DNA from: a virus
Virus record (IMG/VR): IMGVR_UViG_3300020202_000068
Coordinates: 1 to 64,000 of that record
Length of the DNA stretch: 64,000 nucleotides
Strand: one strand, 5' to 3'
Below the pieces are notes generated by a model. The model did not search any database. It worked only from the letters and a program-made list of their open reading frames with translations, and was not told where the DNA came from. Positions within the stretch are counted from its first letter, which is position 1. Each line of letters opens with the position of its first letter. Of this stretch, positions 3,200 through 31,073 are shown piece after piece. The translations under genes were made by a program, and so were the position numbers.

Positions 3200-4510
3200 A
3201 TGGTCACGGCAATCGTGGGCCAGGGTCCGCCCTTGGCCAAATCCCTGCACCCTGGCAGGCTGGTGAAGCTGCTCCAAGCCAGCAAGACCCAGGTGGGCTA
3301 CAACCACCGCCCGCCCGTCAATCGCGTCCTGCGGGTCCACAGTAAATACAGCTGGAAGGAGCAGCCCTGCGTTTACCTCCAGGATGAGCTAACCGGTACC
3401 ACCTACGGCACCACCGAGCTGGACAGCGTGTTCGCGGCGGTCAGTCGGCGCGAGAAGGCCGAATACCGGGACGAACTCACGAAGCTCTACATCTCCGGGA
3501 AACGCTCCCTGGGGGGTAATGGCTGTGGGGGACGCGGGACCGACCCGGAGGTGTTCGTGGTGAACGGGGAGGGCGAGATCATCCCCGCCTACCTGTTCCT
3601 CCCGTCCAAGGCCGCGCCGCTCTATATGAAGGGGGCCCTGGGGGACGTGAAGGCCTTCTACGACGGCTTCCAGGCTGAGTTCACGGTCGGCGTGGCTGGC
3701 TGCCACGAGAACCTCTGTCACGATGTCCGGTTGGGATTGAAGTCGATCTACGAGGCGGCTAAGAAGCTCGACCCCACAGCCAAGCTGACACATCAATGCG
3801 TCCTGGACCTGCCTGAGCACGTTTGGGCCACCACCCCCGCTGAGCAGCGAGTCTTGGGCTGCGATCCCTCCTCGAATGTCTATTTCGAGGGACCGAATCC
3901 CCGCCTGGGAACCGCCGAGGAGCTGCCTTTCCGCTTTGCGGGCTGCCACCTGCATTATGCGATCGGCAGCGATCAGTCCCTGAAGGCTAAGCAGGGGATC
4001 GTGAAGCTCCTGGATGCGATCTCGGGGGTCTGCTCAGTCAGCCTCCTGCGGGGCCTGGAAGACCCGCGTCGCCGGGCCTTCTATGGCCTGGCGGGGGAAT
4101 ACCGGCTGCCGCAGCACGGGCTGGAATGGCGGACGCTGAGTTCCGCGATTCTGATCCACCCGGTCGTTTGGCATTTGGTCTGCGATCTGTCCCGGAAGGT
4201 CGTGGCGATTGCCTTGAGCGATCAGGCCTTTATCTGGGACTGCTCCGCTGATGAGGCTCAGCAGGTCATTAACGACCTGAACGTCCCGCTGGCCGAAGAG
4301 ATCATCCACCGCAACGAGAAAGCCTTACACGCGATCTTGCTCGGCACGTATGGAGCCCAGGAGGTCATCGAGAAGTCCACCCGGCTGATCCTGGAAGGGG
4401 CGGAGAACTGCCTGCCATCGCTGGATGTGGTCGCCAACTGGCACCTCAACGAGGCCCAGTGGCCCCGCCAACCGCAAATGAGAAACACCACACTCAAGGC
4501 GAAGCCATGA
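3200..4510 (+). CDS. phiEco32-like COOH-NH2 ligase type 2 (glutamine synthetase-like fold)
   Basis: GTDPEVF, DGFQAEF, GCDP, RFAGCHLH, RRAFYGLAGEYR, GLEWRTLS motifs. Confidence 0.88.
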   Translation: MVTAIVGQGPPLAKSLHPGRLVKLLQASKTQVGYNHRPPVNRVLRVHSKYSWKEQPCVYLQDELTGTTYGTTELDSVFAAVSRREKAEYRDELTKLYISGKRSLGGNGCGGRGTDPEVFVVNGEGEIIPAYLFLPSKAAPLYMKGALGDVKAFYDGFQAEFTVGVAGCHENLCHDVRLGLKSIYEAAKKLDPTAKLTHQCVLDLPEHVWATTPAEQRVLGCDPSSNVYFEGPNPRLGTAEELPFRFAGCHLHYAIGSDQSLKAKQGIVKLLDAISGVCSVSLLRGLEDPRRRAFYGLAGEYRLPQHGLEWRTLSSAILIHPVVWHLVCDLSRKVVAIALSDQAFIWDCSADEAQQVINDLNVPLAEEIIHRNEKALHAILLGTYGAQEVIEKSTRLILEGAENCLPSLDVVANWHLNEAQWPRQPQMRNTTLKAKP

Positions 4511-5628: not shown

Positions 5629-5670
5629 CAAAAGCGACATGACTGTGTCGCTTTTGACGTAAGTCCTTAT
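5629..5670. repeat. palindrome plus TAAGTCCTTAT element, copy 1
   Basis: CAAAAGCGACA-N6-TGTCGCTTTTG-ACGTAAGTCCTTAT; recurs at 31033 and 39333. Confidence 0.85.
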
Positions 5671-10354: not shown

Positions 10355-10485
10355 CACGGTGGACAACCACCCGGCCCTGGGAAACTGGGGCCGGAAACTT
10401 GTCAGATCGTGAAATGATGGCATTGACAGCCATCGTTCAGTTTTCTACATTGTCCGCGTCACACTTAATGAGGAGGTTCCTGAGG

Positions 10486-10950
10486 ATGCCCAGTGTTATG
10501 CAGATTCGCCGGATGGAGGAGTTCCGGGAATACTTTCGCCAGAAATGGGCGGGACGGGTCACGGATTGGGAGGTCGTCAAGCAGGATATGCTGGACAAGA
10601 ACCCTTGGCTCAATAAGGATCGCTGGCCCAATCTCCGCACGCAGCTGAAGAAGATCAACGATGAGTCAGTGGGTCGCCGGGAGTCGGCGGCACTCGTGCC
10701 GGCGGTGCCCGTCGCCCAGCACGAAGACAACGGCCAGGTGATGGAAATCCCCACACTAACACTCCCCCGCGAGCTGTCGGATGAGGCCCGGGAGTGCATC
10801 AACCGGCTCCTGGAGGAGAATCACCGACTCTCCACGGACATCAGCCTGAAGGAAATGGAGATGGGTGGGCAGAAGCAGCGGCTGGCTGGCCAAGAGGCCC
10901 GCGTGCGGCTGCTGAAGAAGATCGCATTCGAGGCCATTGATGCCCTGTAA
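10486..10950 (+). CDS. hypothetical coiled-coil protein
   Basis: SD AGGAGG upstream of ATG 10486. Confidence 0.65.
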   Translation: MPSVMQIRRMEEFREYFRQKWAGRVTDWEVVKQDMLDKNPWLNKDRWPNLRTQLKKINDESVGRRESAALVPAVPVAQHEDNGQVMEIPTLTLPRELSDEARECINRLLEENHRLSTDISLKEMEMGGQKQRLAGQEARVRLLKKIAFEAIDAL

Positions 10951-10966
10951 GGGAATTGGAAGGACC

Positions 10967-11060
10967 GTGCTAGTAGCTCAACGGTAGAGCGCCGCAGAAC
11001 AAGGACCGCGAAAGCGAGCACCGCCTACGGAGGTAGCTGGATCGTCACCAGCCTAGCACC
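10967..11060 (+). ncRNA. tRNA-like RNA with the anticodon loop replaced by a 29-nt insert
   Basis: acceptor GTGCTAG/CTAGCAC, D arm GCTC-AACGGTA-GAGC, T arm GCTGG-ATCGTCA-CCAGC; no 7-nt anticodon loop. Confidence 0.8.
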
Positions 11061-11062
11061 CT

Positions 11063-11233
11063 TGTCGGTGGAGAAAGGTCAACAAGTGCAACGAGGGTGG
11101 CGCTTAGGCCGTACCCAGCTGGGCACCCTCACCGAGCAGTGATCCGCGTGGAGCGACAAAATCCATTAGGTGTCGAAAAAGACACTGACCGAAGCGTCAA
11201 CCCCACCGGGTGAGCACACGCTGCCCACCGACA
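11063..11233 (+). ncRNA. multi-stem structured RNA of unknown class
   Basis: closing stem TGTCGGTGG/CCACCGACA plus at least four internal helices. Confidence 0.6.
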
Positions 11234-11241
11234 TAATACAC

Positions 11242-11310
11242 GGCAGGAGACGGGAACTGGATTATTTCACCCTTGGGTGGATGACCATGAAGAAGGGAAC
11301 GTCTCCTGCC
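11242..11310 (+). ncRNA. small structured RNA
   Basis: perfect 11-bp closing stem GGCAGGAGACG/CGTCTCCTGCC with an internal hairpin. Confidence 0.5.
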
Positions 11311-11322
11311 ACCTTATAAGGA

Positions 11323-11910
11323 GTGCTTATGATCGACACATTCAAGACTGCTGATGAATGGATGGAGGCAGTCAGGAAGGAAGGTCGCGAGGAGAAGGCG
11401 AAGCACCCGTTCCGCTACTTCATGCGGAGGACATGGCCACGGTTCTGGCGGTGCTATATCCACGAGCCCTGGTACTGGCTGAAGTGCCATGTTTGGCACC
11501 GCTATAACGTCCTGGTCATGCGGGATTTGCCGCCGACCTGGGTAGATCGAGACGTGGCGATCCTGCACGCCAACTTCCAGATACTGAAGGACTTTGTGGA
11601 GAAGGAGGATCGCGGTTCCGAGGAGTTCCCCGGTCACACCCAACGGTCCCGGGAGGACCTCATCAGCGACTACTGGATTTGTAAGGAACGGGAGTATTGG
11701 ACGGAAGAGCAGATCGCCGAGAGCAGGAAGTTCGCGGAACAGAGAGCGGACGACTGGATGGAAATCAAGGCTCTATACGACTGGTGGGAAGTGCGTCGTC
11801 GCGTTGGAGATGATGGCGACTGGGCTCCAGGAGCCGAGATGAATCAAGATCAAGAGGACACCGAGAAGCTCAAGCGGCTCATCGAGCTGCGTGGGTATCT
11901 CTGGAGTTAG
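11323..11910 (+). CDS. hypothetical phage protein
   Basis: SD TAAGGAG; Trp-rich, ends LKRLIELRGYLWS. Confidence 0.75.
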   Translation: MLMIDTFKTADEWMEAVRKEGREEKAKHPFRYFMRRTWPRFWRCYIHEPWYWLKCHVWHRYNVLVMRDLPPTWVDRDVAILHANFQILKDFVEKEDRGSEEFPGHTQRSREDLISDYWICKEREYWTEEQIAESRKFAEQRADDWMEIKALYDWWEVRRRVGDDGDWAPGAEMNQDQEDTEKLKRLIELRGYLWS

Positions 11911-12249: not shown

Positions 12250-12489
12250 ATGACGGCGACTGAATGGCAAACCAAGCCCCTGGGTGAGGTCTTTACCGAG
12301 GGGCAACTGAAGCAGGCACGGGACATCTACAGGCTCTACGACAGGCCCAGCAAGCCCTGCGTGGACCATCTCCGGGAGGAGATTACCGGGCCTCTTATTA
12401 AGCAGATCGACGAGCGTACCGGCCAGGAAAACGGCCCGGCCTATTGGGCCTGGGTTCTGGCCTATGACCTGGGAAAGGATGAGGCATGA
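12250..12489 (+). CDS. hypothetical protein
   Basis: SD AGGAGG. Confidence 0.65.
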   Translation: MTATEWQTKPLGEVFTEGQLKQARDIYRLYDRPSKPCVDHLREEITGPLIKQIDERTGQENGPAYWAWVLAYDLGKDEA

Positions 12490-12707
12490 CCAGAGTCAGA
12501 GACAAGAAAGAACCCGTGGTGATGATAACGCTACGGGTCCCTGAGTGGCTGCACGATGCGATCGTGGATACCGCCCACGAGAACCGTGTCAGCATGAACG
12601 AGTATTGCCGGCAACTACTCGAACAAAATGTTGCCCCCGCCCCGAAAGGATTCACGAATGCTGCCGTCGCTAACCATCCTCTCTCAGCTCAAGTCCGCCG
12701 GGCGTGA
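12486..12707 (+). CDS. Arc/HicB-like ribbon-helix-helix DNA-binding protein
   Basis: ITLRVPEWLHDAIVDTAHENRVSMNEYCRQLL. Confidence 0.8.
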   Translation: MTRVRDKKEPVVMITLRVPEWLHDAIVDTAHENRVSMNEYCRQLLEQNVAPAPKGFTNAAVANHPLSAQVRRA

Positions 12708-12894: not shown

Positions 12895-13198
12895 CGGGGG
12901 CGCTGCCCTCGAAAACGTCATCGAGCGACTCATCGCCCGCAAGGCGGTTCATGCCAGAAAAGGCATCGTTATGGGCGAGGAGTGCTGGGTTGACATTTTT
13001 GATCACCTTCGCGAGGAGGTGAAGGAGCTGGAGGATGCGGTATGGGCTAATCACGCACTCCCAGGCAGTGCAGGGATTGGCGAAGAAATTGGTGACATAC
13101 TCGGGATCGTCGTCCACGCCGCACTCAAGGCCGGCTTCTCGGTGGGCGAGATCGTAAACATGGAAATCGAGAAGCTGAAGGAACGATTCCCTGAATGA
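12872..13198 (+). CDS. MazG-like nucleotide pyrophosphohydrolase
   Basis: LREEVKELEDA...EEIGDIL (EExxE/EExxD). Confidence 0.75.
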   Translation: MLHPEPVSGGAALENVIERLIARKAVHARKGIVMGEECWVDIFDHLREEVKELEDAVWANHALPGSAGIGEEIGDILGIVVHAALKAGFSVGEIVNMEIEKLKERFPE

Positions 13199-20733: not shown

Positions 20734-21138
20734 ATGAGCCTGACATTCAGGAGCGAATCCGACCTACTGCACTATCTCACCACCTCCCCACGCGGGAAGG
20801 GCATCCTCCGCGAGGCCTGTACCGAGAAGTGGATCACTGACGAGATATTGGAGTACAACCGCACCACGCACATCCTCGTGAAGGCTTATCGGGACGGCTG
20901 GATCGAGGTCTATGGACCAAAGACTACCCGCGCTCGCATCGTCTTCCTGGGTCGCACAACGACCTTCCCCGAGTACGAAGTCACCCTTGAACGGCACCTT
21001 GATAGCCTCCTACCCACGCCGTATCGCGAAGTGCATTACCCCGGAAACAGACGGGCCATCGGCTATAGGTATAGCGGTCTTGAGAAAGACCGAGAGGTGA
21101 GGCTGCCGTGGAGCGGAGCGTTAAAATGTTCGAAGTGA
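20734..21138 (+). CDS. hypothetical protein
   Basis: SD AAGGAG. Confidence 0.7.
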   Translation: MSLTFRSESDLLHYLTTSPRGKGILREACTEKWITDEILEYNRTTHILVKAYRDGWIEVYGPKTTRARIVFLGRTTTFPEYEVTLERHLDSLLPTPYREVHYPGNRRAIGYRYSGLEKDREVRLPWSGALKCSK

Positions 21139-21323
21139 GGAGCGTAGAAGGTAAGTTGCTGGGTAGCTACCTCATCAAGGATGAGGCCATTGGCCGCATG
21201 AATGAGTGGCCCCACGCTCATTACGTGGTCGAGGTGTACGAGGTGCGGCAGCTGGTCACTACCAAGGAGCAGGGAGGCTCTAGTGAAGCGAATAAGCCCG
21301 AAGCGCCGGAAGCGTATTTCTGA
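21126..21323 (+). CDS. hypothetical protein
   Basis: operon context. Confidence 0.55.
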   Translation: MFEVRSVEGKLLGSYLIKDEAIGRMNEWPHAHYVVEVYEVRQLVTTKEQGGSSEANKPEAPEAYF

Positions 21324-31032: not shown

Positions 31033-31073
31033 CAAAAGCGACATGCCGTGTCGCTTTTGACGTAAGTCCTTAT
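31033..31073. repeat. palindrome plus TAAGTCCTTAT element, copy 2
   Basis: CAAAAGCGACA-N5-TGTCGCTTTTG-ACGTAAGTCCTTAT. Confidence 0.85.

Follow-up and report, generated by a model that had tools for sequence, protein, structure and literature searches.

A gap with two stem-closed stretches behind a tRNA-shaped element in a very divergent phage: a possible non-coding leader of the downstream gene

The gene-free gap at 10951-11328 of an uncultivated, very divergent phage contains two closed domains, and only their two closing stems exceed chance; the hairpin with the 11-bp stem is convincing on its own. Since nothing but the closing stems beats chance, the gap appears to be an ordinary leader that codes for nothing and carries one strong hairpin ahead of the next gene. 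We tentatively propose that it is a non-coding, co-transcribed leader, composed of a tRNA-like processing signal, then a spacer closed by a stem and finally a strong hairpin ahead of a free ribosome-binding site, a reading that we consider plausible while stopping short of calling it probable. It is the most economical of the readings considered. An earlier, sequence-only reading of the same DNA had described two closed-end structured RNAs at this place. The closed ends of both do exist, and having the two together is unlikely by chance, but the interiors carry no folding signal beyond that of shuffled sequences, and neither two new structured RNAs nor a ribozyme was borne out.

Genome setting and gene neighbourhood

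The window, that is, the whole stretch of DNA that was analysed (64,000 nt), makes up the opening 64 kb of an IMG/VR virus record that is 77,276 bp long. Its G+C content is 56-63%, and its PHROG and Pfam matches are very few, the recognisable genes being a helicase, a major head protein and an amidoligase/glutamine-amidotransferase cluster. No close relative of the phage was found in any collection searched, and its helicase has no close relative in IMG/VR. The + strand carries every gene from 305 to 22614. Two of these + strand genes are separated by the gap of 378 nt, in which three elements (the tRNA-shaped element, 11063-11233 and 11242-11310) occupy 334 of the bases. The features are as follows.

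10486..10950, + strand: upstream gene for an orphan protein, stop TAA at 10948-50; codon score 0.51, gene-like
10967..11060, + strand: tRNA-shaped element with 7-bp acceptor stem, D arm and T arm
11063..11233, + strand: "RNA2", a 171-nt stretch closed by a perfect 9-bp stem; pair probability of the closing stem ~1.0
11234..11241, + strand: linker TAATACAC, A+U-rich and single-stranded, between the closed domains (read from the sequence)
11242..11310, + strand: "RNA3", a 69-nt hairpin with a perfect 11-bp G+C-rich stem; 5' arm with AGGAG, 3' arm with CUCCU
11318..11323, + strand: Shine-Dalgarno (SD) sequence AAGGAG of the downstream gene, 8 nt past the hairpin 11242-11310
11329..11910, + strand: downstream gene for a conserved W-rich protein of 193 aa, ATG at 11329; 7 homologues

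The only match of the upstream protein among 5.8 billion clusters is its own 154-aa form, and the gene start near 10486 was placed from that length. Between the glutamine-amidotransferase gene and this probable true start (~10486), a terminator-like hairpin at 10413-10437 overlaps a good sigma-70-like promoter, TTGACA-17-TACATT (10423-10451). The downstream protein has no Pfam or PHROG match; its seven homologues show 38-56% identity, with 38 invariant columns. Members of this family are small (~150-200 aa) and tryptophan-rich, their invariant columns include HEPWYWLKC and DLPPTW.DRD, and they come from metagenome contigs and from phage contigs of up to 224 kb. Proteins identical to those flanking the gap are also present on other contigs, with 2 and 3 contigs recorded for them.

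The two closed domains

Every helix that had been proposed for 11063-11233 and 11242-11310 was recovered at its coordinates, by reading the sequence and by a repeat search. The 171-nt stretch is closed by 9 bp (TGTCGGTGG at 11063-71 with CCACCGACA at 11225-33), and this closure begins 2-3 nt past the discriminator base of the tRNA-like element; the closed domains do abut the tRNA-shaped element, behind which they had been located. Its internal helices are GGTCA (11077) with TGACC (11186), GAGGGTG (11093) with CACCCTC (11124), GTGTC (11170) with GACAC (11181) and AGCGT (11193) with ACGCT (11218). The second domain is closed by the perfect 11-bp stem GGCAGGAGACG (11242-52) with CGTCTCCTGCC (11300-10). 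The linkers TAATACAC and ACCTTATAA are A+U-rich, and the one at 11234-11241 might conceivably act as an RNase E-type cleavage site.

The hairpin at 11242-11310 has a minimum free energy (MFE) of -31.8 kcal/mol, a z of -4.8 on both strands and an MFE frequency of 0.40; its interior of 47 nt is predicted to form a three-way junction. Its stem forms in the MFE and centroid structures of the whole gap and in every context folded. For 11063-11233, the whole-domain z is -2.4 on both strands. These whole-unit values (-2.4 for RNA2 and -4.8 for RNA3, each equal on both strands) come from the closing stems. When the closing stems were held fixed and the interiors compared with shuffled interiors, the 171-nt domain had a z of -0.38 and the 69-nt hairpin one of -0.32. 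The ensemble of the 171-nt domain is more diffuse than those of 96% of shuffles, and its four internal helices are at chance level: pair probabilities are 0.25 for P2, 0.42 for P3 and 0.27 for P5, and only P4, the GTGTC hairpin, reaches 0.97. The fold that the sequence-only reading had drawn for 11063-11233 is a near-optimal alternative (-60.8 vs -63.0 kcal/mol). Over 10921-11161, the z of sliding 120-nt windows lay between +1.2 and -0.5 (genome background -0.48 +/- 1.25), and among the 120-nt windows at the gap only the hairpin-bearing one stands out (z -3.6, rank 8/507). Interiors that fold no better than shuffled ones, together with ordinary local z, are what would be expected of a spacer.

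Chance expectation of the closing stems

When the gap is shuffled with its dinucleotides preserved, a perfect stem of at least 11 bp appears in 0.5% of cases. Two non-overlapping domains with closing stems of at least 9 bp appear in 0.07% of gap shuffles and in 0.6% of genomic 378-nt windows, and the gap holds the sole abutting pair among the 52 stems of at least 9 bp (arms within 200 nt) in the 64 kb. Stems of this length occur window-wide at the chance rate (52 seen vs ~49 expected), so the 9-bp closure alone means little; a 9-bp stem spanning 153 nt is expected ~0.3 times by chance in a gap of such size. Because ~1.3 abutting stem pairs are expected per 64 kb, the excess rests on the pair falling inside the main non-coding gap, and it is important to note that the tiling, or abutting-pair, statistic was defined after the data were seen.

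Perfect stems of at least 11 bp are rarer. The window holds four, and the intergenic position of three of them is an argument for a use of such stems; one identical terminator-like hairpin accounts for two of the three. This perfect 11-bp hairpin (CAAAAGCGACA with TGTCGCTTTTG) lies at 5629-5656 and at 31033-31059, intergenic and on opposite sides of the genome, and is probably a shared bidirectional terminator. Strong hairpins, stronger than the one at 11242-11310, are also found inside genes of this phage (z -6.2 at 12421), and the presence of a hairpin alone therefore proves no function. The strongest-folding 120-nt windows of the first 30 kb are 12421-12540, 21061-21180, 12901-13020 and 4021-4140, with z from -6.2 to -5.0; at least the one at 12421-12540 (z -6.2) is inside a coding region whose gene begins at ATG 12250.

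Comparison with known RNA families and element classes

A cmscan search against Rfam 15, whose families include RNase P RNA, self-cleaving ribozymes, 6S, tmRNA and Y RNA, returned no match in the gap at gathering thresholds. At E up to 10 there were three weak, non-credible matches, namely CRISPR-DR35, FuFi-1 (10.8 bits vs 59.6 required) and Yar_3. Nothing in these searches ties either domain to a known RNA; the earlier reading had likewise assigned neither to a known class. A ribozyme had been raised as a possibility, and no self-cleaving ribozyme family was among the Rfam 15 matches at E up to 10; the suggested likeness of AAGTGCAAC to RNase P is without backing too, and no RNase P family matched at that E value.

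Other element classes were considered and rejected. ARAGORN called no tRNA or tmRNA in 11063-11233 at default or at 70-80% thresholds with introns allowed, and in 11242-11310 it produced only weak calls under relaxed settings, which lie past 11268 and run into the next gene. The hairpin 11242-11310 does not qualify as an intrinsic terminator: its stem is followed by ACCTTATAAGG, its interior measures 47 nt and a terminator scan was silent. RNase III needs a near-continuous duplex of about two helical turns (~20 bp). The longest helices here are 11 bp and 9 bp, and the predicted interior of the hairpin is a three-way junction, at odds with a T7-type RNase III site. For a miniature inverted-repeat element or inserted cassette the terminal repeats are present, but there is no flanking duplication and no second genomic copy. 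A replication origin was dismissed in view of the lack of an A+T-rich stretch and of iterons. Finally, the copies of the tRNA-like tail in 11063-11233, considered as att-like footprints, are at chance level.

Search for homologues

BLAST of the gap DNA against 50,697 phage records gave no match; against its own 77-kb genome it found only itself, and against four related virus records nothing. Covariance models of both domains (R1 and R2) returned self-hits only, and an nhmmer search found no paralogue or homologue of either domain. In IMG/VR, a 16-mer from the closed domains had 27 hits, none extending past the seed, and an 18-mer had 9 hits, all inside genes, most of which encode HPWVDD in a shared frame. 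The downstream gene offered another route. In the 12 loci of it that were fetched, the gene is tightly packed behind its neighbour with no gap, and nothing in these loci resembles 10951-11328; a GTDB scan with the alignment of the downstream protein found nothing. Complementarity of at least 13 nt to other sites of the window is absent, and there are three 12-mers, about the chance number, so no trans target is evident.

The tRNA-shaped element heading the gap

The element at 10967-11060 is called neither by default ARAGORN nor by the Rfam tRNA model. Its cloverleaf stems are compatible with the MFE structure of 10951-11360. Relaxed ARAGORN gives it an 8-nt anticodon loop and a long variable arm: the anticodon stem is CGCAG/CCGCG, the 8-nt loop is AACAAGGA and the variable arm has 25 nt. 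This loop contains a four-base "anticodon" CAAG and has no U33, and the relaxed reading replaces an earlier one in which the anticodon loop carried a 29-nt insert. With its deviant T loop (ATCGTCA) and without a normal anticodon loop, the element is no more than a putative substrate of RNase P and RNase Z.

The exact 17-nt T arm, GCTGG-ATCGTCA-CCAGC, recurs in an unrelated, A+T-rich phage (IMGVR_UViG_3300005531_000004, L063:905-996), and the same element is present in L062. The RNA at L063:905-996 is itself tRNA-shaped and uncalled; its acceptor stem has 7 bp, its anticodon loop reads CUUAUAA, its variable arm is long and its ACCA is encoded, and it directly precedes a tRNA cluster (Arg, Glu, Lys, an ORF-filled gap, Lys). 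Beyond the T arm, the element in the window shows no similarity to it. An extended 19-nt T-arm pattern, AGCTGGATCGTCACCAGCC, had 20 hits in GTDB, which have no matching acceptor strand and look coding.

The gap as a leader of the downstream gene

Between the upstream stop and the hairpin there is no promoter or terminator consensus, which makes co-transcription the default. We therefore envisage that the gap would be transcribed together with the surrounding + strand operon. The tRNA-shaped element would be the likely site at which the host tRNA-processing enzymes RNase P and RNase Z recognise and cut the polycistronic RNA, and the RNA downstream of it would be the 5' leader of the gene 11329-11910 rather than two independently folded RNAs. 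From 2-3 nt beyond the predicted RNase Z cut the RNA would be paired, the 9-bp helix tying together the ends of an unspecific 171-nt stretch; after the A+U-rich linker of 8 nt would come the hairpin (11-bp stem, -32 kcal/mol), stopping 8 nt before an accessible ribosome-binding site. The paired ends could protect the message downstream against the kind of decay that needs a free 5' end, and could protect any released pieces against exonucleases; translation of the next gene would be left unblocked. Co-transcription, cleavage at the tRNA-like element and a protective role are thus all conjectural parts of this proposal.

The folding predictions bear on access to the ribosome-binding site. The SD core is 65-98% unpaired in all contexts folded, and the GAG of the site is mostly unpaired. 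A switch in which the tRNA-like tail GCACCCUU pairs with AAGGAGUGC and sequesters the SD was rejected, as the long-range helix has a probability of 0.11 and the SD is open throughout. An anti-SD role for the CUCCU of the hairpin's 3' arm was likewise rejected, given an SD open in all contexts folded. The predicted stability of the hairpin and its position, 8 nt before a free SD, are compatible with an mRNA 5' stabiliser hairpin.

Alternative readings of the gap

Protein coding in the gap is not supported, and the intergenic, non-coding character attributed to it earlier is upheld. The frame common to both flanking genes has two internal stops only across the gap; its GC3 is 0.62-0.70, and its codon score falls in the top 7-9% of non-coding frames and in the bottom 3-4% of coding ones. 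When the translation of this read-through frame was searched against 1.84 billion representatives, no credible relative emerged; the single hit, a repeat protein, extends across both stop codons. A small protein or a leader peptide with translational coupling to the next gene would have to be sought in a 49-codon ORF (11170-11319) or in an ORF of 10-12 codons from ATG 11281 or 11287, with the stop TAA at 11317-19, and we regard it as highly improbable. Such an ORF ends at TAAGGAG, 9 nt ahead of ATG 11329, with the TAA abutting the SD, and it is in the frame of both neighbouring genes with an intermediate codon score of 0.04. However, genes of this phage score 0.39 +/- 0.19, no usable SD precedes GTG 11170 or the ATGs, and the ATGs are inside the hairpin; moreover, the 49-codon ORF is absent from a protein collection that holds both neighbour genes, and no homologue was found. 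The gap may have no function at all: it would be decaying DNA, a former small gene or the remains of a tRNA cluster, and the stems would be chance inverted repeats or leftovers of duplication. This is unlikely, yet it deserves serious consideration. The shared frame with its two stops and intermediate codon score agrees with it, as do the chance-rate frequency of stems of at least 9 bp (about one abutting pair being expected per 64 kb), a 20-nt, 75% copy of the tRNA-like 3' end at 11110-11129 with an inverted copy of the tail at 11091-11099, and the relatives of the downstream gene that lack such a gap. Nevertheless, the chance of such a pair falling in the gap 10951-11328 is ~0.001-0.007, the read-through frame lacks a credible protein relative among the same 1.84 billion representatives, and the internal repeats are themselves at chance level, with about one expected.

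Two further readings give the closed stretches a role of their own. In one of them, a tRNA-headed precursor is cut by RNase P/Z and by an endonuclease in the A+U-rich linkers, and releases stable, trans-acting RNAs of ~171 and ~69 nt whose paired ends are protective. The tiling of 334 of 378 nt by three closed units with A+U-rich linkers would suit this scheme, the closing stems are jointly unlikely by chance, and the tRNA region of T4 gives rise to two small RNAs (PMC3014915). On the other side, the interiors are at the level of shuffled sequences, and the ensemble of the 171-nt domain is even more diffuse than random; there is no Rfam match, and BLAST, nhmmer and covariance models turned up neither a paralogue nor a homologue; complementarity of at least 13 nt within the window is missing, as are a promoter and a terminator of their own. 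On balance we find this scheme doubtful, and its stronger form, two stable small RNAs of a new class whose function would reside in paired ends and unstructured interiors, improbable. In that case they might serve, for instance, as decoys or sponges for host RNA-binding proteins or nucleases, and would have counterparts in RNAC and RNAD of T4, which are themselves unexplained. The other reading, which we think very unlikely, places the action in the DNA, the inverted repeats being binding sites of a phage protein, or else the ends or the footprints left by tiny cassettes that inserted behind a tRNA-type gene. The 3' ends of tRNA genes are known insertion sites, and both stems are perfect Watson-Crick repeats that fold equally on both strands. 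Yet the 77-kb genome has no second copy and neither element has a target-site duplication, arms set 47 and 153 nt apart would make an unusually long operator, and no integrase or transposase is nearby by Pfam and PHROG.

Comparison with known systems

Returning to the reading as a leader, several known systems offer parallels. Emory, Bouvet and Belasco reportedly found in 1992 that bacterial mRNA is stabilised by 5'-terminal stem-loops (reference listed in PMC3997798). Like the stabilisers of bacterial and phage mRNAs of the ompA and papA type, the gap has a strong hairpin that precedes an accessible ribosome-binding site, lacks a U tract and leaves the SD unsequestered; unlike them, its hairpin has a branched interior of 47 nt in place of a small loop, and it is known from sequence alone. 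In phage T7, RNase III processing hairpins lie between early genes, and rRNA operons have leader-trailer stalks. The gap shares with these the presence of intergenic hairpins or long-range helices that tie the ends of a segment, but its stems are only 9 and 11 bp long.

tRNA-like processing signals are known from elsewhere, for example as tRNA punctuation in animal mitochondria and in MALAT1-mascRNA. In plant mitochondria, tRNA-like "t-elements" set mRNA ends (PMC1920247). The element heading the gap is similar in having a tRNA shape without a normal anticodon between coding regions, and it could set ends through RNase P/Z. It differs in its deviant T loop and in that its cleavage is only predicted, and the comparison concerns the neighbouring element and not the closed stretches. 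The tRNA region of T4 yields two small RNAs of unknown role, RNAC and RNAD (PMC3014915). These too are small non-coding stretches directly behind phage tRNA-type genes (PMC3014915); however, they are demonstrated stable transcripts, whereas the stretches in the gap have been recognised in the DNA only, with interiors that show no structure beyond that of shuffled sequences.

Significance

The analysis carries a methodological lesson: in DNA of 59% G+C, helices of 5-7 bp listed within 150 nt are uninformative, and here only the closing stems are informative. The neighbouring tRNA-shaped element is a more interesting object than the closed domains. If the leader reading is true, this would be another phage that manages its polycistronic message by means of RNA ends and hairpins, a finding that would be of use in annotation and would not be surprising.
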